DNA from: Dehalococcoidia bacterium
GTDB taxonomy: Bacteria > Chloroflexota > Dehalococcoidia > Lucifugimonadales > UBA1123
Direction: 5' to 3'
DNA length: 64,000 nt
Assembly: GCA_965116415.1 (NCBI GenBank)
Contig: OZ220693.1
Span: 831,076-895,075, forward strand
Shown here: piece after piece, positions 20,338 through 56,833 of the stretch
How the letters are laid out: every line of letters begins with the position of its first letter
Numbering within the stretch: the first letter of the stretch is position 1
Program-made: the position numbers and the translations under genes
Notes under the pieces: model-generated
The model's input: the letters and a program-made list of their open reading frames with translations, nothing else
Told to the model about the DNA's origin: nothing
The model's database searches: none

Positions 20338-20359
20338 TAATCCTCTTTCCTCCGTTGTC

Positions 20360-20435
20360 TGGAGCCCACAAGCAGACTCGAACTGCTGACCTCGTTCTTA
20401 CCAAGAACGCGCTCTACCTCCTGAGCTATGTGGGC
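20360..20435 (-). tRNA. tRNA-Thr (anticodon GGT), CCA encoded
   Basis: The reverse complement reads GCCCACATAGCTCAGGAGGTAGAGCGCGTTCTTGGTAAGAACGAGGTCAGCAGTTCGAGTCTGCTTGTGGGCTCCA. It folds as a canonical cloverleaf with anticodon loop TTGGTAA. Confidence 0.9.
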
Positions 20436-20470
20436 CCGATCCTTATTTGGCGATCAGAAACCTGTCTATA

Positions 20471-20558
20471 TGGTGGACGGGGAGGGATTCGAACCCCCGT
20501 AGCCCTTCCGGGCGCCAGATTTACAGTCTGGTGGTATTAACCACTCACCCACCCGTCC
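20471..20558 (-). tRNA. tRNA-Tyr (anticodon GTA), long variable arm, CCA encoded
   Basis: The reverse complement reads GGACGGGTGGGTGAGTGGTTAATACCACCAGACTGTAAATCTGGCGCCCGGAAGGGCTACGGGGGTTCGAATCCCTCCCCGTCCACCA. Confidence 0.9.
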
Positions 20559-20639
20559 ACGGCTAATCCAAAGTAGTTTAGCATAGCGAACTTTTGCAAT
20601 CCAAGAAAAAGCCAAGAAGGGGCAGAGAGGCGAGGAGAG

Positions 20640-20713
20640 AGCCTCAGGGGGGATTCGAACCCACCAACCTCCCGATTACAAGTCGGGTGCGCTGCCAATT
20701 GCGCCACTGAGGC
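20640..20713 (-). tRNA. tRNA-Thr (anticodon TGT), no encoded CCA
   Basis: The reverse complement reads GCCTCAGTGGCGCAATTGGCAGCGCACCCGACTTGTAATCGGGAGGTTGGTGGGTTCGAATCCCCCCTGAGGCT. Anticodon loop is CTTGTAA. By eye there is one T-C mismatch in the T stem. Confidence 0.8.
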
Positions 20714-20750
20714 CCGCTGTCTGCGTCGTATGACTTTAGGGCAGGGTTGG

Positions 20751-21944
20751 CTAAGGGGTCAATAGCAGGTCTTCAGCAGTGCGCTGGACTGTACGGAAAA
20801 CCTCGTTCAGTGGAAGGCCTGACTCGGCCGCGATCCTTCGGCAGTCTTCGTACTCAGGGCTTACGGATACTGTTTGTCCGTCGATGATCTTCAGCTTCAC
20901 TGAAGCGCTGCCAAGCTGGGTCTCGACCGTCCGAATCTCGCGTAGTGCCTCGTACCGTTCGATTGGGCGCACCCTAACGCCCAGCGTGGTCGTCTCACGC
21001 ATGATCAGATCGGCAGCCTGACTCTCCGTGCTCTCATCGACTATCGCGCAGAGCATCGTTGCGGGCCTGTTCTTCTTCATCTGGATAGGCGTGAACCACA
21101 CGTCCCTCGCGCCAATGTCAAAGAGTCGTTCCTGGACGTATCCGAGCAGCTCGCCAGTGGAGTCATCCAGGTTAGTCTCCAGTAGTGAAAGGCCGCCCGT
21201 CTTGGCATCGTGGGCGACCTCGCCCACCCAGATGCCCAAGACATTCGGGTACTCATCGGGATCCCTGGTGCCGAGTCCGTAGCCCTGAGCCTGCATGGAC
21301 ATGCGGGGCTGCCGAAACTCTGCAAGCGTGGTGATGATTCCAGCGCCGGTGGGCGTCACCATTTCACCGGTCCTGACAGGGTTGTTTGGGGCTGGAACGA
21401 GAGGGGCATCCGCCATGGTGAAGAGCGCCGAAGTCGCCGGGGACGGCACTGGCAGGAGACCGTGAGCGCTCCTGAATACGCCAGTTCCCATGGGGAATGG
21501 CGACGAGTAGACACGTCCTACTCCGAGGTGTTCGAGTCCGACCATTGCGCCTACCACGTCCACCAGCGTGTCTAGCGTTCCCAGCTCGTGCAGGTGCAGG
21601 TGCTCCGCGGACGTTCTATGCACCCTGGCCTCGGCGTCGGCCATTCGATTGAAGACGACGGTCGACTGCTCCTTGACACGGTCGGAAAGCGTTGAGGACT
21701 GAACGGCGGCAACAAAGTCGTCGAAACGATGGGACTTGCGAGCCTGGTCGTCAAGCTCGACTCTCACGTGGGTCCCAACTACTCCACCGCGCTGTGATTG
21801 CTCGACGCTGAGGTCGACGCCGCTAACGTTCATCGCATCCATAGCGTTCACAATGATGCTTAGAGGAACGCCAGCATCTACCAGGGCGCCCAGAACCATG
21901 TCTCCGCTGGCCCCACCAATACACTGGAAGTATGCAGATCTCAG
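20751..21944 (-). CDS. larC: LarC-family nickel insertion protein (DUF111; nickel-pincer cofactor biosynthesis)
   Basis: The conserved N-terminus AYFQCIGGASGDMVLGALVDAG and the C-terminal ...ESGLPLNEV region match the family. The ORF-track start (TTG at 22100) would overlap radA by 136 nt. Between the radA stop and the conserved motif there is no in-frame ATG, GTG or TTG. The 5' end is tentatively set at the CTG at 21944 (GAGAGG lies 8 nt upstream). Confidence 0.8.
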   Translation of the reverse strand: MRSAYFQCIGGASGDMVLGALVDAGVPLSIIVNAMDAMNVSGVDLSVEQSQRGGVVGTHVRVELDDQARKSHRFDDFVAAVQSSTLSDRVKEQSTVVFNRMADAEARVHRTSAEHLHLHELGTLDTLVDVVGAMVGLEHLGVGRVYSSPFPMGTGVFRSAHGLLPVPSPATSALFTMADAPLVPAPNNPVRTGEMVTPTGAGIITTLAEFRQPRMSMQAQGYGLGTRDPDEYPNVLGIWVGEVAHDAKTGGLSLLETNLDDSTGELLGYVQERLFDIGARDVWFTPIQMKKNRPATMLCAIVDESTESQAADLIMRETTTLGVRVRPIERYEALREIRTVETQLGSASVKLKIIDGQTVSVSPEYEDCRRIAAESGLPLNEVFRTVQRTAEDLLLTP

Positions 21945-27417: not shown

Positions 27418-27536
27418 ACCCTGGCAGTGGCCTATTTTCCCACACCCTTGCAAGTGCAGTATCGTCGGCGCTGAAGCGTTTCACTTCCGTGTTCGGGATG
27501 GGAACGGGTGGGTCCGCCTCGCTCAAACCACCAAGG
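27418..27536 (-). rRNA. rrf: 5S ribosomal RNA (stand-alone copy)
   Basis: The reverse complement reads CCTTGGTGGTTTGAGCGAGGCGGACCCACCCGTTCCCATCCCGAACACGGAAGTGAAACGCTTCAGCGCCGACGATACTGCACTTGCAAGGGTGTGGGAAAATAGGCCACTGCCAGGGT. It contains the universal CCCGTTCCCATCCCGAACACGGAAGT core, and the ends pair as helix I. No 23S or 16S sequence is present anywhere in the window. Confidence 0.9.
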
Positions 27537-37108: not shown

Positions 37109-39712
37109 ATGACATCATCTAATGAGTGGCAACTACCGACCGGTGTGCGGCCAACGCGATACGCCCTGAACCTGGAGCCCAATCTCGACACTTTCAAGTT
37201 CGATGGCTACGTGTCGATTGACGTCGAAGTCGAGGTAGCGACGTCTGAGATCGTGCTCAACAGCGCGGAACTCGATATCCACTACGCTCGAATAACTCTC
37301 GGCAGCGGCTCGTCCTATCGAGCGACCGGGGTTTCGTTGGACGAAGAGCGAGAGACGCTTACGGTCTCGTTCGACAGTCCCATCCCGGCAGGCACGGCCC
37401 AGCTCGGGATCGACTTCACCGGTGAGCTCAACGACAAGCTGCGCGGGTTCTACCGGTCGTCGTACACCGACGTGGAAGGCAACCAGCGCTGGATGGCCAC
37501 AACCCAGTTCGAGTCCACGGACGCGCGCAGGGCATTCCCTTGCTGGGACGAGCCGGCGGTCAAGGCCACGTTCGATGTCATGCTCATTGTTCCTGAGGAG
37601 CTTGAGGTCATTTCGAACACGGAGCCGGTCACTACCACTGTCGGCGCCAGTGGCAAGAAGTCCGTACGTTTCGCGGAGACGCCGATAATGTCCACGTATC
37701 TGCTCGCGTTCATCGTGGGCGATCTGGCATGTGTCGAGGACAGGACTGAGGACGGCGTCCTGATGCGCGTGTGGGCGACGCGAGGCAACGAGGACAAGGG
37801 CCAGTTTGCGCTCGAAACGTCGATAGACCTGCTGGACTACTTCCACCAGTACTTCGGAGTCCCCTACCCGCTTTCCAAGTTGGACCACATCGCAATCCCG
37901 GACTTTGCCGCAGGAGCTATGGAGAACTGGGGGGCCATTACGTACAGGGAGGTGGCGCTTCTTGTCGACCCCGAGAACAGTTCGGCCGGAACACGCGAGA
38001 TCGTCGCGGCAATTGTATCGCACGAGATGGCGCACCAGTGGTTTGGCAATCTCGTGACCATGGAGTGGTGGGACGACCTGTGGCTCAACGAGAGCTTTGC
38101 GTCGTGGATGGGCGACAAGGCCGTCGACTACCTGCATCCCGAGTGGGAGATGTGGACACAGTTCCTGACCCACGACACCGGCTCCGCTCTCAACCTCGAC
38201 GGACTACGCAACTCGCACCCTATCGAGCAGGAAGTTGGCAATCCGGCAGAGATCGGGCAGCTCTTCGACGCCATAAGCTACTCCAAGGGCGGCTCTATCC
38301 TGAGGATGCTGGAACACTACCTCGGGGCAGACGACTTCCAGAAGGGTCTCCAGATATACATCAAGCGTCACGAGTACGCGAACGCACGCACGCGCGACCT
38401 GTGGAACGCGCTCGGCGAGGCATCGGGCGAGCCAGTTGCCGAGATCATGGACACCTGGACGTCGCAGACCGGGTATCCGGTGTTGGACACCACTATCTCC
38501 CGATCTGAGGACACCATTGACGTCGGCCTTTCGCAGTCGCGGTTCCTGTACGATGACGTACTCGGGGGCAGTGACGGAGACGATACGATCTGGAAAGTCC
38601 CCATCACGGCACGCACTGCCTCAAATGCCGACCCAGTGCGCGAGCTTATGGACGCGCCAGAGGCGACTCTCAGCCTGAAACCCGCGTCGTTCGGACAGGG
38701 CGACGAGTGGATCAAGGTCAACCCCGGGCAATCCGGCTTCTATCGAGTCAAGTATTCGGACGATGAGATCGAGCGCCTCAAGGCACCGATCAGGAGTCTG
38801 ACGCTTCCGGCCCAGGACAGGCTCGGGCTGAACTCCGACGCTTACGCGCTGGCTAAGGCAGGGCACATACCGGCGTCAGCGTACCTTAACCTCGCCGAAG
38901 CTTACTCCAACGAGACCGACCCGTCGGTTGCCAGCGACCTTGCGGCGTCGCTGAATGCTCTCGACAACCTGCTGTCTGACGAAGCCTTCTACACAGCCTA
39001 CCAGGCTTTTGGGCGAAGCATATTCAAGCCCATCGGCGAACGCGCAGGCTGGGATGCCAAGTCCGGTGAGGGGCACAGGGATGTTCTGCTCAGGTCGACA
39101 GCGCTCGGGCAGCTCGGACGATTCGACGATGCTGAGACTCTCGACGAAGCGGGAAGGCGATTCCAGAGCTACCGAGAGGATCCTGCAACGGTGCCTGCCG
39201 ACCTCAGGTCCGTGACGTTCTCGATGGCTGCCAAACAGGGTGGCCGCGGCCTCTACGACACGATGTGGGAACTGGAGCAGCGGGCGACACTTCAGGAAGA
39301 GAAGATGCGCCTGCTCGGTGCGCTGTGCAACTTCGACGACCAGGCGCTTCTCCAACAGACGCTGGACAGGTCTCTCGACGACGACTACGTTCGAAGTCAG
39401 GACACCATCAGGGTGATGGTTTCGGTTGCCTCGAATCGACAGGGCCGCGACCTTGCCTGGCAGTTCCTGAAGGACAACTGGGACGAGTTCGACCGTCGCT
39501 ACGGCGAGGGAGGATTCGCCATCATGAGACTCGTTAGCATCTCCTCGCTGTTCACCACAGAGGAGAAGCGCCAGGAGGTCGAGGAGTTCTTCGCGGCCAA
39601 TCCAGTACCATCGGCAGATCGGACGATACGTCAGGGTCTGGAACGCATGGCCATCAACATCGCATGGATGGACAGGAATCGCGAGGACCTGGCGCGCTGG
39701 CTGGTAGCCTAG
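37109..39712 (+). CDS. pepN: M1-family aminopeptidase (aminopeptidase N-like)
   Basis: 867 aa. Contains the GAMENWG exopeptidase motif, the HEMAHQWFGNLVTMEWWDDLWLNESFA zinc motif and an ERAP1-like C-domain. Confidence 0.92.
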   Translation: MTSSNEWQLPTGVRPTRYALNLEPNLDTFKFDGYVSIDVEVEVATSEIVLNSAELDIHYARITLGSGSSYRATGVSLDEERETLTVSFDSPIPAGTAQLGIDFTGELNDKLRGFYRSSYTDVEGNQRWMATTQFESTDARRAFPCWDEPAVKATFDVMLIVPEELEVISNTEPVTTTVGASGKKSVRFAETPIMSTYLLAFIVGDLACVEDRTEDGVLMRVWATRGNEDKGQFALETSIDLLDYFHQYFGVPYPLSKLDHIAIPDFAAGAMENWGAITYREVALLVDPENSSAGTREIVAAIVSHEMAHQWFGNLVTMEWWDDLWLNESFASWMGDKAVDYLHPEWEMWTQFLTHDTGSALNLDGLRNSHPIEQEVGNPAEIGQLFDAISYSKGGSILRMLEHYLGADDFQKGLQIYIKRHEYANARTRDLWNALGEASGEPVAEIMDTWTSQTGYPVLDTTISRSEDTIDVGLSQSRFLYDDVLGGSDGDDTIWKVPITARTASNADPVRELMDAPEATLSLKPASFGQGDEWIKVNPGQSGFYRVKYSDDEIERLKAPIRSLTLPAQDRLGLNSDAYALAKAGHIPASAYLNLAEAYSNETDPSVASDLAASLNALDNLLSDEAFYTAYQAFGRSIFKPIGERAGWDAKSGEGHRDVLLRSTALGQLGRFDDAETLDEAGRRFQSYREDPATVPADLRSVTFSMAAKQGGRGLYDTMWELEQRATLQEEKMRLLGALCNFDDQALLQQTLDRSLDDDYVRSQDTIRVMVSVASNRQGRDLAWQFLKDNWDEFDRRYGEGGFAIMRLVSISSLFTTEEKRQEVEEFFAANPVPSADRTIRQGLERMAINIAWMDRNREDLARWLVA

Positions 39713-40479
39713 ACCTGCATCAGGAAGTCGACTCGGAGTCGACCCGGTCTGGACATTCGCCGGTAGAGGCTCGTCCAGTCAGTGTCGCGGAGCGGCTGTG
39801 GAAGGCGGCTCTGGACATCATATTCCCAATTGCATGCCTGGGATGTGGCGCACATGGGCGTTTTATCTGCCCTGACTGTGCGGATCGGATGCCGAAGCTG
39901 GAGCGGCCATTCTGCACGGTGTGCGCCAACCCCGGCGCGGGCGGAATATGCTCCTGGTGTCACGCACATGCGCCCTCAATTGACGCCATTCGTTCGCCGT
40001 ATCTCTATGTGCCGAGCAGCCCCATCTACAGGGCGATCACATCGTTGAAATACGGTGGGATGCGAAGTGTCGCGCCCGAGATGGCTGAGCTTCTGCACTC
40101 GTTTTGGAGCAGTCGTCGCTCGGCAGATCCGGACGTCATCGTGCCGGTCCCAAGTCATAGCTCGCGAGTCAGACAGCGAGGATATGCTCAGGCATCTCTG
40201 ATTGCCGACGAACTTGCCAGCAGGATGAACGTGCCGGTTAGCACCGACACGTTGGCAAGGGTCATTAACGCGCCATCCCAGCTAGAGACCGAATCGCGAG
40301 AGGACCGGTGGACCAACGTCCAGCGTGGCTTCAGGGCAGAGTCTCAAGTAGAAGGCGCTAACGTGCTTCTGGTAGACGACCTGGTGACTACAGGTTCGAC
40401 AGCCTCTGCGTGCGCCGCCGCGTTGAAGGTGGCTGGCGCACGCAGAGTCATCTGCTTGTCGGTCGCGCGGGCGCCTTAG
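39664..40479 (+). CDS. ComF-family phosphoribosyltransferase-domain protein
   Basis: Contains an N-terminal double CxxC (CLGCG...CPDC, CTVC...CSWC) and the PRTase motif VLLVDDLVTTGSTA. The start is uncertain. The ATG at 39664 overlaps pepN by 49 nt, and downstream the only in-frame candidates are CTG codons. Confidence 0.8.
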   Translation: MDGQESRGPGALAGSLDLHQEVDSESTRSGHSPVEARPVSVAERLWKAALDIIFPIACLGCGAHGRFICPDCADRMPKLERPFCTVCANPGAGGICSWCHAHAPSIDAIRSPYLYVPSSPIYRAITSLKYGGMRSVAPEMAELLHSFWSSRRSADPDVIVPVPSHSSRVRQRGYAQASLIADELASRMNVPVSTDTLARVINAPSQLETESREDRWTNVQRGFRAESQVEGANVLLVDDLVTTGSTASACAAALKVAGARRVICLSVARAP

Positions 40480-40480
40480 G

Positions 40481-41347
40481 TTACACGCGGACGAACTTCG
40501 AGACCCGCTCGCCCTGGCCGATCTCGGTGACGTAGATGCTGCCGTGGGAGTCGACGCAGATTCCGTGACCGCCGATGAGGGTCCCCATTCCAGCGCCCTC
40601 GTTGCCACGCCACCGGGTGATCAGCTCGCCGTCCATGGTCCAGATGCTGACGCCGTTGCCGCCGCCCTGCTCGATGACGTAGATGATGTCATCGTGTATC
40701 CAGAGGTCCCCGGGGGCGACCATGTCGGTCCACTCTTCGATGAAATTGCCCTCGTCATCGAACAACTGCATCCTGTTGTTTTCGCGGTCGGCGATGTAGA
40801 CCCTGCTGTTCTTGTCCACCCAGACGTTGTGGAGGAGCGCAAACTCGCCCGGACCGGTGCCCTGCTTGCCCCAGGACTTGACCAGCTCACCATCGGCGGT
40901 GAACTTGTGGACGCGGTGACCTCCGTAGCCGTCAGAAACAAACATGTGGCCGTCCGGCGCTATGGCGAGTCCAGACGGCATGTTGAAGGGCATGCCCTGA
41001 AACGACGGCGAGGGCGCGAGCTTTTCGCCGAGAGTGCGGAGCGCCTCACCCCCGGGTGTGTACTCGGTGGCGATGTGGTAGTCGCGGTCGACCAGCCAGA
41101 CGTTGTCGTTCGGCGCGATGTAGATGCCGTGCGGGTTGGCGGAGAAAGTGCCCTCACCCCAGGAGCTGATGAAGTTTCCGTCCGTGTCCCAGATGGTCAA
41201 CGGATGGAGTCCCCGGCTGAAAATGTAGACCTCGTCCCTGGAGTTCACTGCGCCGTCTGAAGCTGCGCCAAACTCCCAGTACTTGGGCATGTTTGGCCAC
41301 TCGGGCACGCGTTCGTATTGAAAGTCTCCTGATCCTACGACTGCCAT
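40481..41347 (-). CDS. NHL-repeat six-bladed beta-propeller protein
   Basis: 288 aa. Contains repeated ...P.G[IV]A.D..G..[YF]V.D..N.R[IV]..F... units. Confidence 0.75.
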   Translation of the reverse strand: MAVVGSGDFQYERVPEWPNMPKYWEFGAASDGAVNSRDEVYIFSRGLHPLTIWDTDGNFISSWGEGTFSANPHGIYIAPNDNVWLVDRDYHIATEYTPGGEALRTLGEKLAPSPSFQGMPFNMPSGLAIAPDGHMFVSDGYGGHRVHKFTADGELVKSWGKQGTGPGEFALLHNVWVDKNSRVYIADRENNRMQLFDDEGNFIEEWTDMVAPGDLWIHDDIIYVIEQGGGNGVSIWTMDGELITRWRGNEGAGMGTLIGGHGICVDSHGSIYVTEIGQGERVSKFVRV

Positions 41348-41389
41348 TTCGATTCACCTCACTTGTCGAATAGCTTAGGAAGCAGGGCG

Positions 41390-41418
41390 ATTGTATTTTG
41401 CACCGGGTGCATGGTCAA
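41390..41418 (-). promoter_or_regulatory. sigma70-type promoter for the NHL-repeat gene
   Basis: On the minus strand: TTGACC (41418-41413), a 17-nt spacer, TACAAT (41395-41390). It lies about 45 nt upstream of the ATG. Confidence 0.5.
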
Positions 41419-41606
41419 CCTGAGTTGCGGGTACGGGGTCCTGAACTGAAACTGATGAACAGGATTCGACCAAAGTCAAGCAATTTCGGAAAATTCTCAA
41501 GGGTGTTATATATTTAACTTGACAACGAGACTCACAACACAGGCTGCTTCTCACTCATTTGGGAGAATCCGCGTTAGCCGCTAGTGGCTGGCGGACGAAT
41601 CAGCAA

Positions 41607-41828
41607 TCAGATATGAGAAAACTGCGCTGACAGCCAGCCGCACTCCTCGCTGAGGGACCCAAGACGGCGTTGAATCTCTTCGAGGTCCTTAGCTATGCTG
41701 ACCAGTTTGGGGTCAATCTGAGGAGCCTGGGGATCGCGTACTGGCACCGGCTCAAGAAGCTCACGTACTTCTGCCACCTTTCTAGCGGCCTCGTTGTATC
41801 GCTGTTCCAGAACTGCGAATCTCTCCAT
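41607..41828 (-). CDS. hypothetical 73-aa helical/coiled-coil protein
   Basis: The internal ATG at 41828 is preceded by AAGGGAG. The sequence is MERFAVLEQRYNEAARKVAEVRELLE... It is the last gene of a three-gene small-ORF operon. I recognise no family. Confidence 0.45.
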   Translation of the reverse strand: MERFAVLEQRYNEAARKVAEVRELLEPVPVRDPQAPQIDPKLVSIAKDLEEIQRRLGSLSEECGWLSAQFSHI

Positions 41829-41874
41829 GGGTACTCCCTTGACCGAGAATCTTGCCCTGCTGAGTAACACACTA

Positions 41875-42084
41875 TCAGATGCGGTAGTCCACAAGCCAAG
41901 TTGTCAGGGTCTCGATTCGCTGTGGCTCCTGCTCGATAATCAGTCCGTAGGCGCAGTCTAGGCAGAGCTGTCTGCTAGCTGTACCTTCCAGTCTCCGATC
42001 TAGGTGCAGGTCTTCCCTGCACTCAGTACGGATGTGGTAGACCGTGCCTCCAGCAGTGTGCCAAGGGGCGGCGACCGTAGCCAT
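41875..42084 (-). CDS. hypothetical 69-aa Cys/His-containing protein
   Basis: Its start overlaps the stop of the upstream Pmp3-like gene (TAATG). It contains YHIRTEC ... CLDC. I recognise no family. Confidence 0.45.
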   Translation of the reverse strand: MATVAAPWHTAGGTVYHIRTECREDLHLDRRLEGTASRQLCLDCAYGLIIEQEPQRIETLTTWLVDYRI

Positions 42085-42284
42085 TAGTTCTGCCCCCTGT
42101 TAATCATCCCCGCCATTCTCTCTGAGCGCTGGTTTGCCTTGTGCTCATTCACAACCAGCATGGCATGAATGATCCCAGGCACCCAGAGCAGAAGGGTCAG
42201 GCCGACATTCAGAAGGGCTGAAAAGGGTCGTCCTGTACATAGGACAGCGACCGGCGGTAGTACGATTGCCAGCAAATACAGCAT
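42084..42284 (-). CDS. YqaE/Pmp3-family small membrane protein
   Basis: 66 aa from the ATG at 42284 (GGAGG upstream). MLYLLAIVLPPVAVLCTGRPFSALLNVGLTLLLWVPGIIHAMLVV matches the Pmp3 pattern (LPP..V......N..LT...W.PG.IHA). The ORF-track N-terminal extension is rejected. Confidence 0.7.
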   Translation of the reverse strand: MLYLLAIVLPPVAVLCTGRPFSALLNVGLTLLLWVPGIIHAMLVVNEHKANQRSERMAGMINRGQN

Positions 42285-42290
42285 CTTGGA

Positions 42291-42372
42291 GCCTCCTCGT
42301 GGCGTGGATTGGCTGTACTCGCCACAAGTCCCACCGCTCCGTGTATACCGCGAGGAGGCACGAAAACGTGCC
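42291..42372 (-). promoter_or_regulatory. possible SD-sequestering leader structure upstream of the Pmp3-like operon
   Basis: On the mRNA (minus) strand, GCCUCCUCG (42359-42351) is perfectly complementary to the SD region CGAGGAGGC (42299-42291). An alternative hairpin GGCACG-UUUU-CGUGCC (42372-42357) overlaps the anti-SD by 3 nt. Confidence 0.3.
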
Positions 42373-42516
42373 TTTCCACGCCTGCATACACGCATGGAGT
42401 TGTGGGCTGTGGCGAGCCATGCCCAAACCTTGCCAGTGGCGGGGCTTGTTGTCAAGCTGAGGCGGCCTTAAAACTCACCTAACGCGATCCTGTGCTAAAC
42501 TTGTCAGCAGCACATT

Positions 42517-42553
42517 GAAAATACAAAGACCCCAGTGTTGGCGCACTGGGGTC
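42517..42553 (-). terminator. intrinsic terminator (minus strand)
   Basis: On the minus strand: GACCCCAGUG-CGCCAA-CACUGGGGUC (10-bp stem), followed by UUUGUAUUUUC. Confidence 0.6.
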
Positions 42554-42611
42554 AATCCGTCGGACAACGTGGGCTGTCGTGTCCTGTTGCGTAAGTATAG
42601 CACAGATTTTT

Positions 42612-42648
42612 GAGGCCCTCGTCGGACAGTGACGAGGGCCTCTTTTAT
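42612..42648 (+). terminator. intrinsic terminator (plus strand) abutting the tRNA-like gene
   Basis: Perfect 12-bp stem GAGGCCCTCGTC / GACGAGGGCCTC with loop GGACAGT, followed by TTTTAT. The tRNA-like element starts at the very next base. Confidence 0.6.
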
Positions 42649-42742
42649 GCGGAGCGTAACCCCAGCAGGTGCTGGGCGCGGCTTGAGAAGCCGCTGGATG
42701 CTGCGAGAACAGGATTGGGGTTCGATACCCCTACGCTCCGCT
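42649..42742 (+). tRNA. non-canonical tRNA-like gene (Sec/allo-tRNA-type architecture, anticodon GAG, no encoded CCA)
   Basis: 94 nt. Acceptor GCGGAGCGTA pairs with TACGCTCCGC (9-10 bp). The T arm is GGGG-TTCGATA-CCCC (4 bp). The D arm is CCCAGC-AGGT-GCTGGG (6 bp, 4-nt loop). The anticodon arm is GCGGC-TTGAGAA-GCCGC. The variable arm is about 22 nt and the discriminator is T. A canonical 7/5 cloverleaf cannot be drawn. Confidence 0.55.
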
Positions 42743-42818
42743 CTAGTTCAATTGTAAGCTAGGGCTTGACAAGAAACAACCTCATGGTGCGCCTAGAACA
42801 TACCCCAGGAGCTAACCC

Positions 42819-42983
42819 ATGCACCCACTTGTGATAGGCTTAATTGCAGTCTTGGTCATAGGACTATCCCTATTAGGCCTTGCCGTTGCATCACAATTCG
42901 GATACGGACTCATAGGAGCACTTGCAGGACTAGTCGCGGGAGCTGTCATTGCACTAGTTGTCATGGCATACGCCGGAAGGTAG
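42819..42983 (+). CDS. hypothetical 54-aa hydrophobic (two-TM, Gly-zipper-like) peptide
   Basis: Not in the ORF track because it is under 60 aa. AGGAG lies 8 nt upstream of the ATG at 42819. The sequence is MHPLVIGLIAVLVIGLSLLGLAVASQFGYGLIGALAGLVAGAVIALVVMAYAGR*. Codon usage is AT-richer than in neighbouring genes. Confidence 0.35.
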   Translation: MHPLVIGLIAVLVIGLSLLGLAVASQFGYGLIGALAGLVAGAVIALVVMAYAGR

Positions 42984-44015
42984 CTGACACGCCAATGTGC
43001 GGGTGAACTAGAGATCGCTCCTGCCTAGAACATCACCAACTGAGCGCCGTCCGGCGGCTCGTGACCGATCAGCACCTGGTACTTGAGACGCTTGTCCAAC
43101 ATAGCCACAACCAGATTAGCCATCTGGTCGATGGTATCCAGGGGTCGCCAGTTGTGCCGATGCTCGAACTCGGACACGTACCGGGCTAGATGCTTGGCGC
43201 TGAACCAGTGGTAGATGCCCTGATACCCACGCTTCATCTGCGCCCAGAACGATTCCATGCCGTTCGTGCTTGCCATACCCCTGACGTACTCACCAGCACT
43301 GTGATTGACAGTCTCGTGCTCCCGAGCAATCCCGCTGTAGCCTCCCCAGCTGTCCGTGTAGACCACAGTATCCTCATAGGTCCTGGACTCTACAAAACGA
43401 TGCAGTGTTCGCTGAGACGCATCGGGTACGGGAGCCGCTGACACCTGATGGCTGTATCGGTCCCTGATGCCGACTACAGCAATGTGACCTTGGACTCCCC
43501 GTCCGATTCCGCCTCCCCGTTCTCGTCGCCTTCGGGCGTGCATGGAACGGGCTCGCCCACCAACATAAGTCTCATCTGCTTCGACAGGTCCACGAAACAT
43601 CGGGTCGTCGGACCGCATTGCCTCCCGTATCCTGTGCTGCATGAACCATGCGCTCTTTTGAGTGATGCCCAGGTCACGGTGTAGCTTCATTGACGACACA
43701 CCCTTGAGGTTCGTCATCATCTGGTAGATCGCTATGGCCCACTTCTGGTAGCCGATCTTCGAGGACTCCATGACAGTGCCGAGCTTCGCGGAGAAATACT
43801 TCCGACAATCACCGCACCAGTATGGCATGGGCTTGGAGTTCTCGACCGGAGACGTGACTGTGCTCCCACACCTGGGGCAAGCCCTTCCGTCCGGCCAGCG
43901 GATGCTCTCGAACCATGCCCGTGCTTGCTCTTCGTCCGGGAACATGTCAAACAACTGGACGAGCGATATGCCGTCCCTCTCTTCTCTGCCTGCCACTGCC
44001 CTGGCTCCTCTTCTA
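42984..44015 (-). mobile_element. IS1595-family insertion sequence; ends not resolved
   Basis: Defined only by the transposase gene. I could not find convincing terminal inverted repeats or target duplications by eye, so the boundaries are approximate. Confidence 0.45.
43025..43996 (-). CDS. IS1595-family transposase (N-terminal zinc-ribbon plus ISXO2-like DDE domain)
   Basis: 323 aa. Contains FPDEEQARAWFESIRWPDGRACPRCGS ... YWCGDCRKYFSAKLGTVMESSKIGYQKW ... SSMKLHRDLGITQKSAWFMQHRIREAM and D...D...E spacing in the C-terminal half. Confidence 0.85.
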   Translation of the reverse strand: MAGREERDGISLVQLFDMFPDEEQARAWFESIRWPDGRACPRCGSTVTSPVENSKPMPYWCGDCRKYFSAKLGTVMESSKIGYQKWAIAIYQMMTNLKGVSSMKLHRDLGITQKSAWFMQHRIREAMRSDDPMFRGPVEADETYVGGRARSMHARRRRERGGGIGRGVQGHIAVVGIRDRYSHQVSAAPVPDASQRTLHRFVESRTYEDTVVYTDSWGGYSGIAREHETVNHSAGEYVRGMASTNGMESFWAQMKRGYQGIYHWFSAKHLARYVSEFEHRHNWRPLDTIDQMANLVVAMLDKRLKYQVLIGHEPPDGAQLVMF

Positions 44016-44291
44016 CTACTCTTCTTTACCGTCTAACTCGAATCGTAACCTCACAGGATTACGTCGCTGTACTAAGACAGTCTGCATTGCTTGCAGCAAC
44101 TCGTGTGTCTCACTGTACGCTTCCCCATTTGTCCAATTCCTGTTGCAGGATGGGCACATTTTGATCGGCTTGGTGCATTCATTCAGAGGCCTTACAACCT
44201 CGGCCTTACAATCATCCCAACCACACCGATACCGCACTGCCTGGATGTCATCCAGCCCAAACACGATCTTGCTTTCCTTCATAACGCTCAT
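44016..44291 (-). CDS. hypothetical 91-aa protein with a CxxC-type pair (C..DC ... CPSC)
   Basis: Internal ATG at 44291 (MSVMKESKIVFGLDDIQAVRYRCGWDDCKAEVV...CPSCNRNW...). It stops 20 nt from the transposase start. The region is AT-rich. I recognise no family. Confidence 0.4.
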   Translation of the reverse strand: MSVMKESKIVFGLDDIQAVRYRCGWDDCKAEVVRPLNECTKPIKMCPSCNRNWTNGEAYSETHELLQAMQTVLVQRRNPVRLRFELDGKEE

Positions 44292-44484
44292 CGTGGGTCC
44301 CCTCGGCTGGACGCCTTGGGAAACCCAGCCTCCTTGGTTGGATTTGTCTATGCCCCAATTGTACCTGAGACAAGGCACTTTGTCAAGTTATCTACGTAAC
44401 TTTGGAAGGACGACACTTGACGTTGTGCTATGCTCTGGCAACTAAAAAGACCCTCTGCAAACGAGGGTCAGAACAGGACTTGAT

Positions 44485-44757
44485 ATGCACGAACTACTGA
44501 AGCAATTGGCTATCAAATGGCAGGAGGCCGCTGGCAATCTGGAGGGTTATACATCCCACAACGAGTTTGGGAGAACCGTTCCATTGCTATTGAGGTTGAG
44601 CCTTACAGCCGAGGGCGAGTTACATCTAGAGGTCATAGCTGAGTCTGATGTTTTTGGAACTCACCATGCTGGTGAACTACTCAACGCTTCGTCAGATATG
44701 GAGTCCCCTGCTATACCGACAGCTTCTGTGACGATTCCGCCAGAGACTCTTTTCTAA
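44485..44757 (+). CDS. hypothetical 90-aa protein
   Basis: ORF with an ATG start in the AT-rich islet, divergent from 44016..44291. I recognise no motif. Confidence 0.35.
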   Translation: MHELLKQLAIKWQEAAGNLEGYTSHNEFGRTVPLLLRLSLTAEGELHLEVIAESDVFGTHHAGELLNASSDMESPAIPTASVTIPPETLF

Positions 44758-44929
44758 CAGGCAGAAGTCCAGATCGACGACGCACTTCGGTTATAGATAG
44801 AACTTCGTCTTTGATGGATAGCTCTTTTTGCACCCCAGCCCCCTTTTCACCTTGTCCTACTACCCATTCTCTGCCCTCTCACGTCGGTTTGTCAACTTTT
44901 GTATATAAGTTCCATTCTCAAATAAAGTA

Positions 44930-44956
44930 TTGACAAGTGCCCAAAACAGGTATATT
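44930..44956 (+). promoter_or_regulatory. strong sigma70-type promoter driving the structured RNA
   Basis: TTGACA (44930-44935) and TATATT (44951-44956; spacer 15-17 nt depending on register), preceded by an A/T-rich UP-like stretch AAATAAAGTA. Confidence 0.6.
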
Positions 44957-44965
44957 CTTAATTTT

Positions 44966-45171
44966 GCCCCAAGTGGTTGAGGCTAACGATTCAGCGGAGC
45001 GGTTACAGCAGGCGGGACGCCGCAGGTTGCGCTCTCAGAGTCGGAAGGTCCGGCCCCCGAACGAGCAGGCAGTGCGTTGCAGGCTCACGGGAGTTGGATC
45101 CTGGAGGCTGGTAGCGTCGGTGACGCATCGCAGGCGCGGACGCTGGTCTCGAGGGCGAGGTCACTTGGGGC
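44966..45171 (+). ncRNA. candidate structured small RNA of about 205 nt, class unknown (closed-rod, 6S-like overall shape)
   Basis: The 5' GCCCCAAGTGG (44966-44976) pairs with the 3' TCACTTGGGGC (45161-45171). Several internal GC-rich hairpins are present. The element follows the promoter and is followed by TTTGTATTT. There is no credible ORF, and it converges on hpt, so it is not a 5' leader. Confidence 0.5.
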
Positions 45172-45222
45172 GTTTGTATTTCCCCTCGTTTCCCTTCCCG
45201 CGCCGATGGTGCGCGTTTGCGT

Positions 45223-45756
45223 TTATGGCCCATCGCTCCGGGCGATATCCAGTGCGCGCACGTCCCTCAGGTTCCTGTAAGCGCCGTTGTAGTCCAGGCC
45301 GCAACCGACAACGAAGACATCGGGGATCTCGAAACCTACGTACGCGACCTCCAGGACGTGGGTCCTCTTTGAGGGCTTGTCCAACAGAGAGCACACCTTG
45401 ACTGACTTTGCTCCCAGGTCGATCACGTGTCGGGAGAGAGCTGTCAGCGTCGCTCCTGTGTCCACTATGTCCTCCACGAGGAGGACATGCCGACCCTCGA
45501 GGGACTGCTGAGAGGGAAGCCATTCAACTGTAATCTTGCCCGGCTCCGTTCCGCTGTAGCTCTGGACGCGGGCTGTGGCAACGTCGACGGAGTGTGGAAA
45601 CGCCCGGATCAGATCGACGAGAAAACACATCGCGCCATCCATCACGCCGACAAATATCGGGGCGGTGTCGCCGTAGTCCCCGGAAATCCTGCCCGCGAGC
45701 TTGGGGATTGCGCGGGCAATTTCGGCTTCCGAGATAACGATGTCTCCCAGGGGCAT
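45223..45756 (-). CDS. hpt: hypoxanthine phosphoribosyltransferase
   Basis: Contains the PRTase motif VLLVEDIVDTGATLT and C-terminal VVGCGLDYNGAYRNL. I prefer the ATG at 45756 (MPLGDIVISEAEI...) to the GTG at 45792. Confidence 0.92.
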   Translation of the reverse strand: MPLGDIVISEAEIARAIPKLAGRISGDYGDTAPIFVGVMDGAMCFLVDLIRAFPHSVDVATARVQSYSGTEPGKITVEWLPSQQSLEGRHVLLVEDIVDTGATLTALSRHVIDLGAKSVKVCSLLDKPSKRTHVLEVAYVGFEIPDVFVVGCGLDYNGAYRNLRDVRALDIARSDGP

Positions 45757-45984
45757 TGTCGAATCCTTGGCGGTGTCGAGGTCCGGTGTCACAGATGCAG
45801 GGTGCTCGCGAAATTCATGGCACCATGATACTGCGTTTGGTCTGTTCCAATCATCCGCAATCCACCTGGAAATTACCGGATGAACTGGTTTCCGAATTCA
45901 TAGTCTCTGTTGCGGGCGAACGCTATATGTTAATCTCGGACGGTCGCTGACAACCCCCTACTAGGAAACTGGACTAAGTCATCG

Positions 45985-47370
45985 GTGCGTAAAGGCGTAT
46001 TCAGACCCACGTCGGCCAGAGAGGCCGTTACAGGCTTGCGTGGCGTCTTCTACGGGTGGTGGTTGGTTGGCCTCTCATCGATCATGCTCACGCTGATGTC
46101 CCTCACCGTATTCCAGGGTCTAGGCACGATGCTTGTTGCCCTCGAGCGCCAGTTTATGTGGAGCCGCACAGCACTCTCCGGGGCGTTCTCGCTTGCACGC
46201 ATCGAAGGAGCCGTGCTTGGACCAATAGAGGGCGTGCTGATCGACCGCATCGGTACCCGACGAATGGTGATGATCGGCTACACGATCATGGGCGTCGGCT
46301 TCATCTGGCTTTCGCAGATAGAGTCACTTGGAAACCTGCGGTTAATCGCGAAGTTCACGCCTTTCGACTCGCTCGACGAGAGTCTCATCCAGTTCTACCT
46401 GGCGTATATTTTCATCACACTTGGTTCTGGGCTCGGTGGTTGGCTCGCGCTCATCGCACTGGTGAACAACTGGTTCAGCAGGCGTCGCTCGTTCGCGATG
46501 GCAACTGCGATGTCGGGGATACACCTCGGCGGGCTGCTCGTCACCCCTTTCGCGCTGGCAATCGACACGTACGGATTCGAAAGCACCGCGCTTGGGATTG
46601 GCATCGTCCTGCTGGCAATAGTGGGTCCGGCTACGAAGGCCATTCGGAACCATCCAGAAGACATGGGACTCAACCCTGACGGTGACGCTCAGCGCACTCA
46701 GACGAGTGAGAGCCAGACAGCCCAGTCTCCAATTGATGACGAGCCCGAATTTACCGTAATGCAGGCGTTGAAGACGCCCGCATTCTGGATGCTGACAATC
46801 GCGCAGGTCGCGTCCAGCGTGGCAATCGTTACGCTGGCGCTGCACCTGGTACCGAAGTTGACCGATACTGGGATGTCTCTAACGGCGGCAGCTTCGGTCC
46901 ACACGACCTATACGATCATTGCCCTGCCCGCCCAGTTCATCTCCGGTTACTATGCCGACAGACTTCCCAAGACACTGATGATCGCCTTTTTCATGTTTGT
47001 CCAGGGAGTTGGCATATTCATCATCGCCCTGTTCGACAGTGCAATCATGGCATACCTGTTCGCGGTGCTGTACGGCATCGGCTTCGGCGGTCGTAGCCCG
47101 CTTACTACGGCAATCAGGGGCGAGTACTTTGGACGCAAGGCATTCGCAACGATCATGGGTATATCACAGTTCCCAATGAACATCGCGATGATCTTCGCGC
47201 CGCTGTTTGCGGGCTACATGTTCGACACCACGGGTACGTACATCGTTCCATTCACGATATTCGCCGGACTAACCATGGCTGGCGGCGTGTTGATGCTGTT
47301 CGTGAGAAGGCCCAAGGCGCCGCTCGGAACGGTACAACCTGAGCCTGCGACGACTCGTACGTCAACCTGA
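45985..47370 (+). CDS. MFS transporter
   Basis: 461 aa with about 12 predicted TM segments, a central hydrophilic loop and an MFS-type D-R-x-G-R-R-like motif (IDRIGTRRM). Confidence 0.8.
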   Translation: MRKGVFRPTSAREAVTGLRGVFYGWWLVGLSSIMLTLMSLTVFQGLGTMLVALERQFMWSRTALSGAFSLARIEGAVLGPIEGVLIDRIGTRRMVMIGYTIMGVGFIWLSQIESLGNLRLIAKFTPFDSLDESLIQFYLAYIFITLGSGLGGWLALIALVNNWFSRRRSFAMATAMSGIHLGGLLVTPFALAIDTYGFESTALGIGIVLLAIVGPATKAIRNHPEDMGLNPDGDAQRTQTSESQTAQSPIDDEPEFTVMQALKTPAFWMLTIAQVASSVAIVTLALHLVPKLTDTGMSLTAAASVHTTYTIIALPAQFISGYYADRLPKTLMIAFFMFVQGVGIFIIALFDSAIMAYLFAVLYGIGFGGRSPLTTAIRGEYFGRKAFATIMGISQFPMNIAMIFAPLFAGYMFDTTGTYIVPFTIFAGLTMAGGVLMLFVRRPKAPLGTVQPEPATTRTST

Positions 47371-55018: not shown

Positions 55019-56833
55019 ATGGATGTAAATGTTCTCACAATGGAAAAGCTGTTTGGAAAGCCCATACGCTACCAGATTCCGACTTTCCAGAGACCGTACG
55101 TTTGGGGCAAAGACGAACAGTGGGAGCCACTCTGGGATGACGTGCGTAACACGGCCGAGGACTATCTAGAAAACAGCGCCAACACGAATGGATCGGTGCG
55201 ACGAGTTCCCACAAGCCAGGCACGGGCACATTTCTTGGGTGCTGTCGTCGTTCAACAGCAGCCTTTCATGACAGGTGAAATCGAAACTAGACTTGTAATA
55301 GACGGCCAGCAACGTTTGACAACATCGCAACTGCTCTTGGACGCCGTGCAAGAAATACTAGAGCAACGCGAATATGGTCGTATGGCGAAGAGGCTGTCAC
55401 TACTTGTTCTAAACAATGACGCCTACATAGAAGACGAAGACGATGTATTCAAAGTGTGGCCGACCCTCAATGATCGGGACGCATTTCGTCACGCAATGCA
55501 CAACGGACTTCCAAGTGAAGAATACGAAGATTCTCTAATCGTACAGGCTCACGAATTCTTTAAGCAGCAAATTGAACACTGGCTAGACGAACGTCCCGAG
55601 GAGGTCGAAGCACGAGCAGACGCACTAGAAAAGGCCGTCGTACATCTTCTTGAATTAGTCATAATCGATCTGCGCTTGGATGATGAACCGCACATTATAT
55701 TCGAGACTCTCAATGCTCGAGGGACCCCTTTACTGCAGTCTGATCTCATAAAGAACTTTATCCTCTATAAGGCCGGACAGGCCGATATCACTGATGGCTC
55801 AGAGGATGCAATAGGGTTGTGGGCATTTAACGATGACTGGTGGAGAACTGAAATCGGCAGAGGCCGCATAAGGGAACCGAGGATTGACGTCTTCCTAAAC
55901 TACTGGCTCACCATGCGGACGCGAGAGGAGATTAGGCCGGACCGAACTTCAGCAGAGTTCCGCAACTACGTGGAAGGGACACACTACGACATTAGAGAGA
56001 TTGCTGGCGACATCAGACGGGTCGGCGAAACTTACCGAGATCTTGAAATCGGCAACAAGGTTGGATTCGAGAGTTTCCTATACAGGCGCGAAGTCATGCA
56101 GGCTGGAACACTTACTCCAGTTCTACTTTGGCTATTCTCTTCCCAAATGTCAGAAGCGCAGCGAAAGAAGGGGGTTCACGCGCTAGAGAGCTACATGGTC
56201 CGACGCATGGTTTGCCGAATGACAACCAAGAATTATAATCAGCTTTTTCTCCGACTAATAAACACCCTAGAGGACGAAGGACCAACGGCAGCGGGCGATA
56301 CCATAGCCCGTTATCTGGGAGAACAGACAGCCCATGCAAACTTGTGGCCAGATGACAGAATGCTCGAAGACGCTTTCCTAAAACTCCCTCTCTATTGGTC
56401 CCTCACGAGGGGGAGGCTCAGACTTGTCCTAGAAGGGATTGAAGAGGAGATGCGATCGAGAATGGCGGAGAGCCACTCTGTGCCACGAGGGCTAACGATT
56501 GAACACATCATGCCACAAAAGTGGCAAGCCAATTGGCCTCTTGATGCAGATACCGCAGACGTAGAGAGTGTCGTGAAGAAGAGAGATCGCCGCAACCGCA
56601 TTCTCCATTCGATCGGCAATCTGACTCTTGTAAATGGACGGCTGAATGCAAGCCTGTCCAATGGCCAGTGGTCAGACAAAAAGAAGGTATTGAACCAACA
56701 CACGGTTCTCTTCCTTAACAAGGAACTCTTGGACGAAGCTCCAAATACCTGGGACGAAGAGCTCATAGAAGAGCGCGCGCGGCGGCTATCAGGAATTGCA
56801 GCGCGAGTCTGGCCTTCTGCCGAGGCCATATAA
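55019..56833 (+). CDS. DUF262/DUF1524 two-domain nuclease (GmrSD-like type IV restriction/defence protein)
   Basis: 604 aa. The N-domain has FQRPYVW and IDGQQRLTT (the DGQQR motif of the ParB-like DUF262). The C-domain has TIEHIMPQKW ... IGNLTLVNGRLNASLSN (His-Me/HNH-like DUF1524). The gene and its flanks are visibly AT-richer than neighbours. Confidence 0.8.
   Translation: MDVNVLTMEKLFGKPIRYQIPTFQRPYVWGKDEQWEPLWDDVRNTAEDYLENSANTNGSVRRVPTSQARAHFLGAVVVQQQPFMTGEIETRLVIDGQQRLTTSQLLLDAVQEILEQREYGRMAKRLSLLVLNNDAYIEDEDDVFKVWPTLNDRDAFRHAMHNGLPSEEYEDSLIVQAHEFFKQQIEHWLDERPEEVEARADALEKAVVHLLELVIIDLRLDDEPHIIFETLNARGTPLLQSDLIKNFILYKAGQADITDGSEDAIGLWAFNDDWWRTEIGRGRIREPRIDVFLNYWLTMRTREEIRPDRTSAEFRNYVEGTHYDIREIAGDIRRVGETYRDLEIGNKVGFESFLYRREVMQAGTLTPVLLWLFSSQMSEAQRKKGVHALESYMVRRMVCRMTTKNYNQLFLRLINTLEDEGPTAAGDTIARYLGEQTAHANLWPDDRMLEDAFLKLPLYWSLTRGRLRLVLEGIEEEMRSRMAESHSVPRGLTIEHIMPQKWQANWPLDADTADVESVVKKRDRRNRILHSIGNLTLVNGRLNASLSNGQWSDKKKVLNQHTVLFLNKELLDEAPNTWDEELIEERARRLSGIAARVWPSAEAI

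Follow-up and report, generated by a model that had tools for sequence, protein, structure and literature searches.

A candidate (8/4) allo-tRNA with a leucine anticodon beside a transposase gene in a marine SAR202-like Chloroflexi genome

Among sequences that narrowly miss being matched by the tRNA-Sec model of Rfam, Mukai et al. 2017 (NAR 45:2776, PMC5389517) identified a class of irregular tRNAs that are characterized by a 12-bp acceptor branch (8/4 or 9/3, the base pairs of the acceptor and T stems), a D arm resembling that of tRNA-Sec, a long variable arm, and G73 or U73. Members with a serine anticodon, which are present in phages and some bacteria, were classified as (8/4) tRNA-Ser, and those with other anticodons were named allo-tRNAs; the anticodon stem of the latter was described as longer than the canonical one. 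The class has been reported from Clostridia, Proteobacteria and Acidobacteria, and its association with mobile DNA has been published. In the case of Silvibacterium bohemicum, the (8/4) allo-tRNA-GAG was shown to insert serine at CUC codons in E. coli, and its induction killed the cells (PMC5389517). Few natural tRNAs are predicted to violate the genetic code at sense codons, and allo-tRNAs are among them.

Here we analyzed a 64,000-nt stretch of DNA, referred to below as the window, which corresponds to positions 831,076 to 895,075 of contig OZ220693.1 from a Dehalococcoidia bacterium (assembly GCA_965116415.1), and which contains a tRNA-like gene on its plus strand at 42649-42742. We consider it moderately probable that this element is an (8/4) allo-tRNA(GAG) that is predicted to be charged with serine and most plausibly acts as a missense tRNA. 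This overall estimate results from combining two parts: the structural classification of the element as an (8/4) allo-tRNA, of which we are highly confident, and an actual decoding of leucine codons as serine in vivo, which we propose tentatively, as a possibility that falls somewhat short of probable. The assignment as allo-tRNA(GAG) is based on the 8/4 architecture, the GAG anticodon, the absence of A73 and the serine-type acceptor end, and it was made from the published description of the class together with a model of phage tRNAs. A recoding or missense tRNA was one of the functions proposed in an initial annotation of the window, and the serine-type body of the element and the precedent of the S. 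bohemicum allo-tRNA-GAG (PMC5389517) make it the most plausible of them.

The element is a real feature, well beyond chance. Its 94 nt read GCGGAGCGUA AC CCCAGC AGGU GCUGGG C GCGGC UUGAGAA GCCGC UGGAUGCUGCGAGAACAGGAUU GGGG UUCGAUA CCCC UACGCUCCGC U, and the maximal acceptor helix is formed by the perfect pairing, over 10 bp, of GCGGAGCGUA (42649-42658) with UACGCUCCGC (42732-42741). The D arm (42661-42676) has a 6-bp stem (CCCAGC/GCUGGG) and the tetraloop AGGU, in which G18 and G19 are present. The anticodon arm (42678-42694) has a 5-bp stem (GCGGC/GCCGC) and the loop UUGAGAA, with U33, A37 and the leucine anticodon GAG (42685-42687), corresponding to codons CUC and CUU. Next come a 22-nt variable arm (42695-42716), whose seven-position stem contains a single G.G mismatch and ends in a loop of 6 nt, and a T arm (42717-42731) with a 4-bp stem (GGGG/CCCC) and the canonical loop UUCGAUA. 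These arms, as well as the lack of an encoded CCA, are present in the sequence as they had been described in the initial annotation. The nucleotides required for tertiary contacts are all kept (G18 G19, U54 U55 C56, A58 and U33). The cloverleaf is also the minimum free energy fold of the isolated element (-54.1 kcal/mol, z = -5.57, with 0/200 shuffles as stable), and it is retained when the element is folded in its 201-nt context. The tRNA-Sec/allo-tRNA type of fold that had been assigned to it is borne out by the Rfam tRNA-Sec model RF01852, which scores 53.4 bits at 42650-42740 (gathering threshold 47; E 5.8e-8 for the whole window) and is the sole Rfam match to E <= 1 within 41300-45300. 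As had also been stated, a 7/5 cloverleaf cannot be drawn, since the fifth pair of the T stem would be U.U; ARAGORN called three canonical tRNAs in the window (Thr, Tyr, Thr; 20360-20713) and did not call the element.

The acceptor can be drawn with 8, 9 or 10 pairs. In the 8/4 register, GGAGCGUA (42651-42658) pairs with UACGCUCC (42732-42739), and the core tRNA comprises 42651-42740, with G42651 as +1 and G42740 as the discriminator G73, followed by CUCUAG. The branch formed by GGAGCGUA/UACGCUCC and GGGG/CCCC then has 12 bp, and all of its pairs are standard. A scan of IMG/VR for elements with the same loops revealed phage tRNAs of identical architecture, including an (8/4) tRNA-Ser(CGA) at L104:553-638 (loci compared with the window are denoted by L and a number) that reads GGAAGAUG AU UUAUGC AGGU GUAUAA C ACUGC UUCGAAA ... 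GGGG UUCGAUA CCCC CAUCUUCC U CCA. The 8/4 core of the window element and L104 were the seeds of a model, R1, with which 25 phage (8/4) tRNAs were collected, and a covariance model, R2, was built from those 25 tRNAs with the window sequence excluded. It should be noted that the alignment underlying R2 was fitted with R1, one of whose two seeds is the window sequence; in its sequence content, R2 is nevertheless independent of the window. R2 matched the element at 42651-42740 with 79.0 bits (E about 9e-19) over model positions 1-88 of 88, and in the resulting alignment 23/23 core pairs are standard and G42740 is placed as the discriminator. The canonical class-II tRNA-Tyr of the host reached only 46.9 bits on this model, with mismatches. 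Compensatory changes are found at 23/23 pairs in the alignment of the 25 phage tRNAs and the element, in which 95.4% of cells are paired, compared with 40-48% in control alignments in which the partners were slid by 1-3 columns. Taking the 23 standard pairs, the class signature and the R2 score together, the element read with G42651 as +1 is, as far as its sequence goes, a textbook (8/4) serine-type tRNA that is closer to this class than to tRNA-Sec. Two statements of the initial annotation depend on the register. A discriminator U applies only if all 10 acceptor pairs survive in the mature RNA, and a branch of 13-14 bp, beyond the described classes, only if the extra pairs are retained; read as 8/4, the element has G42740 as its discriminator and a branch of the described 12 bp.

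The acceptor end is of the serine type. G1:C72, G2:C71, A3:U70 and G73 are all present in the 8/4 register. According to Normanly and colleagues (1992), the identity set of the E. coli seryl-tRNA synthetase (SerRS) reportedly consists of G1:C72, G2:C71, A3:U70, C11:G24 and G73. The three pairs are found in 23/26, 25/26 and 25/26 members of the class alignment, respectively, and nearly all phage members start with GGA and end with UCC followed by G or U. Serine anticodons (CGA, GCU, UGA, GGA) are present in 24 of the 25 phage tRNAs. One member of the alignment has the tyrosine anticodon GUA, and the window element is the only one with a leucine anticodon. A73 is the major identity element for LeuRS, and it is absent from the element in every register, the discriminator being G, C or U. 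In addition, CUN-reading tRNA-Leu usually have G (m1G) at position 37, where the element has A37. The features that it shares with a canonical bacterial tRNA-Leu(GAG) are the anticodon and the long variable arm; unlike tRNA-Leu, it lacks the 7/5 branch and A73, has a D arm of 6 bp with a tetraloop, and is not called by ARAGORN.

The resemblance to the class of the S. bohemicum (8/4) allo-tRNA-GAG extends to the tRNA-Sec-like match, the 8-bp acceptor with a 4-bp T stem, the long D stem with a tetraloop, the long variable arm, G73, the non-serine anticodon (the identical GAG), the mobile-DNA neighbourhood and the predicted serine identity. The element differs from the published (8/4) allo-tRNAs in its SAR202-like Chloroflexi host, in two extra acceptor pairs that extend into the leader and trailer, and in its 5-bp anticodon stem. 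With the phage (8/4) tRNA-Ser, on the other hand, it shares the architecture position by position and the GGA.../...UCC acceptor end, with G73 or U73 being present in the phage set. The closest of them, L104, is identical in 50/90 columns and has the same AGGU D loop and GGGG-UUCGAUA-CCCC T arm. However, the phage tRNAs have serine anticodons, lie in tRNA clusters and often encode CCA, whereas the element is solitary, has GAG and lacks CCA. Some of these phage clusters hold several tRNA-Ser isoacceptors of the (8/4) type next to each other (L053, with up to 6 matches, L058, L062, L120 and L087, all from IMG/VR), and they were the source of the 25 sequences behind R2.

The proposed function would involve the following steps. 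SerRS ignores the anticodon and relies for recognition on the acceptor end and the long variable arm, which predicts that the element is charged with serine. The mature RNA would begin at G42651, and CCA would be added post-transcriptionally after G42740; the tRNA-Thr(UGU) of the host also lacks an encoded CCA, so the missing CCA is no obstacle. A 12-bp acceptor/T branch would make the element compatible with EF-Tu and the ribosome, and once charged, it would decode CUC and, by wobble, CUU as serine instead of leucine. In the long open reading frames (ORFs) of the window, CUC and CUU occur at 27.4 and 12.7 per 1000 codons (together 40), which is ~45% of the leucine codons, and high expression of a Ser-tRNA(GAG) should be harmful. 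The fold, the membership in the class, the anticodon and the genomic context can be read from the sequence, and we infer from them the processing at G42651, the serylation, the use in translation and the level of expression.

The tRNA-like gene lies in a stretch of lower GC content from about 41250 to 45000 (0.47-0.58, compared with 0.60-0.63), which contains an operon of a Pmp3-family gene with two small ORFs, the tRNA-like gene, a 54-aa ORF, a transposase gene with a 120-aa ORF, and a 90-aa ORF. The transposase gene (43025-43996, minus strand; Pfam PF12762/PF12760, NCBIfam NF033547) belongs to the IS1595 family and is convergent with the tRNA-like gene. The orphan 54-aa ORF (42819-42983, plus strand) starts 77 nt downstream of the element, has an AGGAG ribosome-binding site and is possibly co-transcribed with it; its product would be very hydrophobic and glycine-zipper-like, and no relative was found among 1.84 billion representative proteins. 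None of the small neighbouring ORFs matched a Pfam, NCBIfam or PHROG family of known function. Homologues of a neighbouring NHL-repeat protein come from sources named 'Chloroflexi bacterium' and 'SAR202 cluster bacterium', and at the loci of relatives identified via this protein (86-89% identity), the flank differs and no tRNA-Sec-like gene is present. In L225, a 4.06-Mb circular contig, the Pmp3 leader (85% identical to window 42301-42461) is present together with a transposase gene of 78% identity in DNA and 80% in protein. Between these homologous flanks, the 560 nt at 42465-43024 of the window, a module comprising two terminators, the tRNA-like gene and the 54-aa ORF, are replaced in L225 by 646 unrelated nt. 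Neither of the two related IS1595 loci, L224 and L225 (transposases 83% and 80% identical), gave a tRNA-like match. Thus, although the initial annotation was right that a transposase gene of an insertion sequence (IS) lies next to the element, the two related copies without the element show that it is not a regular part of this IS, whose terminal inverted repeats were not definable. The absence from the syntenic loci of relatives, the exchange of the module in L225, and the lack of a match at L224 and L225 identify the gene, as judged from these alignments, as a lineage-specific, horizontally acquired insert rather than a fixed component of the IS.

Several observations weigh against the element being a functional serine-inserting tRNA. 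The first ones concern its expression. An intrinsic terminator consisting of a 13-bp hairpin (42612-42642) and UUUUAU occupies 42612-42648 on the plus strand; this strong terminator is located immediately 5' of the tRNA-like gene and ends 1 nt before it. Furthermore, a sigma-70-type promoter scan of both strands of 41800-43400 found none, and the same scan detected the promoter upstream of the operon of three canonical tRNA genes and tuf (Thr-Tyr-Thr-tuf; TTGACC-18-TAAAGT) and that of the transposase operon. Both the terminator and the want of a good promoter had been noted in the initial annotation. The promoter of the transposase operon, TTGACA-17-TACAAT at 44358-44386 on the minus strand, precedes the 120-aa ORF and the transposase gene and is conserved at L224 and L225. 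A minus-strand intrinsic terminator at 42528-42553 suggests that transcripts of this operon run antisense across the 54-aa ORF and the tRNA-like gene and end there. The abutting terminator, the lack of a sigma-70-type promoter and the antisense transcription from the transposase operon indicate that expression of the tRNA-like gene is probably weak or conditional.

The second group of opposing observations concerns the structure. The anticodon stem has five clean pairs, and a sixth, C42677:G42696, forms only if U42695 is bulged, as in the Rfam alignment, whereas a longer stem is described for allo-tRNAs. Moreover, the extra Watson-Crick pairs C42650:G42740 (-1:73) and G42649:C42741 (-2:74) extend the 8/4 acceptor to a helix of 10 bp that would bury G73, and because of the buried discriminator RNase P might cut elsewhere, leaving a 13- or 14-bp branch that EF-Tu may refuse. 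The phage (8/4) tRNAs do not show consistent Watson-Crick pairing of -1 and 73. The two extra pairs may be a complementarity between leader and trailer.

Finally, no orthologue was found with the patterns used, and purifying selection thus has no support from true orthologues. A loop-anchored pattern (AGGT-N12-TTGAGAA-...-GGTTCRANNCC) gave 37 matches in 185,579 species genomes, all of them chance matches or archaeal canonical tRNA-Leu(GAG) and none an acidobacterial allo-tRNA; it gave seven matches in IMG/VR, none of which is related, and 93 loci in JGI metagenomes. A pattern combining the D and T arms matched nothing in the metagenomes and only unrelated tRNAs in IMG/VR, and blastn against plasmids and phages gave nothing meaningful. 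Only one of the 93 metagenome loci, L168:1-84, is an analogue, and a partial one. This GAG-bearing sequence, whose 5' end is missing, is located on a soil metagenome contig (Ga0193695_1009744, about 68% GC). It shares with the element the D loop AGGU, the anticodon loop UUGAGAA, the GGGG/CCCC T stem and the spacing throughout, and its D and anticodon stems differ in sequence from those of the element yet still pair. Its scores are 29.8 bits on the Rfam tRNA-Sec model (truncated) and 36.9 bits on R2. The gene ends in CGCCCUCGG-C-CCA, and this encoded CCA fits a 9/4 architecture with C73 rather than 8/4, which is a further point on the opposing side. A G followed by a C after the eighth acceptor nucleotide is present at the same two positions in L168 and in the window element. 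Loci encoding relatives of the protein encoded next to L168 contain no tRNA-Sec-like gene.

L168 differs from the window not only in its soil origin and encoded CCA, but also in what follows the GAG gene. Just downstream (L168:95-178), a hairpin CCGA-UUCUCAA-UCGG is followed by a second hairpin and a strong terminator. The loop UUCUCAA of the first hairpin is the exact complement of UUGAGAA and displays the cognate codon CUC. The hairpin might serve the anticodon loop as a decoy or partner, or it might represent the anticodon arm duplicated in inverted orientation. The window contains no hairpin complementary to the anticodon arm. Two other families came up in IMG/VR. The first is a large tRNA-like family (L074-L130, e.g. 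L075, L090, L078 and L115) with the AGGU D loop, the anticodon loop CUUAUAA (UAU), mismatched D stems and the T arm (A/G)GGG-UUCGAUA-CCC(U/C), which resembles the allo-tRNA-UAU group, considered inactive or non-translational (PMC5389517). The second (e.g. L080 and L110) consists of 7/5 tRNA-Tyr(GUA) with a 5-bp D stem and a tetraloop.

The observations on expression and conservation also bear on another explanation, namely that mobile DNA carries the element as a passenger that is silent or has no role in translation. Its RNA would then either be produced in amounts too small to be useful or be produced without serving the ribosome; it could act as a processing signal, as a regulatory RNA or as an RNA linked to a toxin-antitoxin system, or the gene could be a recent acquisition that is heading for decay. 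We regard this as rather unlikely, although several observations would fit it. The gene lacks a sigma-70-type promoter, has a terminator abutting its 5' end and is antisense to what is likely the 3' part of the transposase transcript; the element is a singleton without orthologues in a replaceable module beside an orphan ORF; a Ser-tRNA(GAG) would be toxic; and there is the inactive allo-tRNA-UAU group. On the other hand, the stems, the tertiary-contact nucleotides and the SerRS-type acceptor signature are all intact, whereas a decaying gene should have lost pairs, as the Edaphobacter pseudogene has, and no recognisable toxin-antitoxin gene is located nearby.

The structural observations raise the question of whether the extra acceptor pairs are kept in the mature RNA, in which case the element would belong to an undescribed cloverleaf class, either 9/4 with G-1:C73, similar to tRNA-His, or 10/4 with U73, with a charging or function unlike the serine type. 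We consider this distinctly improbable. Both flanking pairs are of the Watson-Crick type, for which we estimate a chance of about 1/16, Rfam aligns the element as 9/4, L168 shares the G then C and has its CCA exactly in the register of 9/4 with C73, and irregular tRNAs bearing G-1 that are charged by HisRS have been described (PMC5389517). However, the 8/4 register reproduces G1:C72, G2:C71, A3:U70 and G73 and scores 79 bits on R2, two complementary flanking pairs can be due to chance, and the register of L168 is unproven because its 5' end is missing. In addition, we know of no aminoacyl-tRNA synthetase identity set that matches a C1 start combined with C73. The related possibility that the element and L168 together define an undescribed class with a 13-14 bp branch, and with either non-serine charging or a non-translational role tied to mobile DNA, is likewise improbable in our view. 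If the extended acceptor helix were present in the mature RNA, the element would represent a new cloverleaf geometry.

The element could in principle also be a tRNA-Sec variant with a sense anticodon, which, once serylated, SelA would convert and SelB would bring to special CUC codons. Mukai and colleagues are said to have reported tRNA-Sec species bearing anticodons for sense codons in 2016. Like bacterial tRNA-Sec (selC), the element combines an extended acceptor and a long variable arm with a D arm of 6 bp and a 4-nt loop, and it exceeds the RF01852 gathering threshold. The branch of tRNA-Sec has 13 bp (8/5, or 8/4 plus 51a; 9/4 in archaea and eukaryotes), and a 9/4 fold with C42650:G42740 as first pair can be drawn for the element, but an 8/5 fold cannot. 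The (8/4) tRNA-Sec, species of which exist in Chloroflexi, carries a bulge at position 51a (PMC5389517). The element, on the contrary, has a 4-bp T stem without this bulge, GAG in place of UCA, and C42741 instead of G73 as the discriminator in the 13-bp 9/4 register, and it fits the (8/4) tRNA-Ser model better (79 vs 53 bits). Furthermore, it belongs to an acquired module that is absent from relatives, and no SelA, SelB or SelD domain was found among the 30 larger ORFs of the window, 27 of which are 300 aa or more. We therefore judge this variant to be very improbable.

The suggestion that the element is an integration-site remnant or the duplicated end of a canonical tRNA, to which the lower-GC variable stretch beside a transposase gene might point, is largely refuted and extremely improbable: the element is full length and has no 7/5 fold, no integrase is encoded nearby, no second copy of its parts of at least 10 nt is present within 39000-47000 except for two chance 10-mers in the variable arm, the window holds no other copy of the 41300-45200 region, and the idea is rejected because the 3' end of the tRNA is not repeated in direct, att-like form within 39000-47000.

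As an (8/4) allo-tRNA(GAG), the element appears to be the first (8/4) allo-tRNA reported from Chloroflexi, its host being a marine SAR202-like bacterium. A full-text literature search gave no report of an allo-tRNA in Chloroflexi, and Chloroflexi are mentioned in the description of the class only in relation to tRNA-Sec (PMC5389517). This would widen the range of the class to marine SAR202-like Chloroflexi, with the same GAG anticodon as in the acidobacterial example that inserts serine. The arrangement in a swappable 560-nt module, with an upstream terminator, an antisense operon and no promoter of its own, suggests how a potentially toxic missense tRNA might be kept nearly silent. Conditional mistranslation could be tested on this well-defined candidate, which also offers one more natural scaffold for engineering the genetic code.

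Some other features of the locus are worth mentioning. The leader at 42301-42461 lies upstream of the Pmp3-family gene (42084-42287, minus strand) and is 85% identical to L225:7612-7770. Its ribosome-binding site is surrounded by inverted repeats that are nested (42286-42302/42348-42364 and 42301-42313/42370-42382). The leader has no Rfam match and may be a conserved regulatory one. Two copies of AAATACAAA, inverted relative to each other, are the only ones in the 64-kb window, and they belong to an imperfect inverted repeat of 16-22 nt (42519-42534/45166-45181) that brackets 2.66 kb containing the tRNA-like gene, the small ORF, the transposase gene and two more ORFs. A larger mobile unit may end at these repeats; L224 and L225 lack the motif. 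Between the conserved promoter and the start of the transposase gene lies the 120-aa ORF (44016-44378), which has two CxxC-like motifs and matches phrog_4875 weakly (E 7e-4). L224 and L225 lack this ORF, and in both of them the promoter directly adjoins the transposase gene. Three sigma-70-type promoters are clustered in 44358-44958, namely at 44386-44358 (minus strand), 44895-44866 (minus strand) and 44930-44958 (plus strand). The RNA predicted from the second is antisense to the 90-aa ORF (44485-44757) and would end at a terminator at 44469-44449, and a candidate plus-strand transcript at 44966-45225 is not unusually structured (z -0.69).

Elsewhere in the window, the genes for tRNA-Thr(UGU), tRNA-Tyr(GUA), tRNA-Thr(GGU) and tuf (EF-Tu) are co-oriented behind one promoter-like site (19138-20762), an arrangement that resembles the E. 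coli tufB operon; CCA is encoded in two of the three tRNAs. A 5S rRNA gene is located at 27419-27535 (83.8 bits), and no 23S or 16S rRNA gene is present in the window, so that the rRNA genes appear to be unlinked. A gene for a GmrSD-type restriction endonuclease, which targets modified DNA, is located at 55019-56833, and the syntenic loci of relatives contain other defence genes (MmeI, Type ISP, TIR and HEPN) beside the NHL gene. The region thus seems to be a hot spot for defence genes and mobile DNA.

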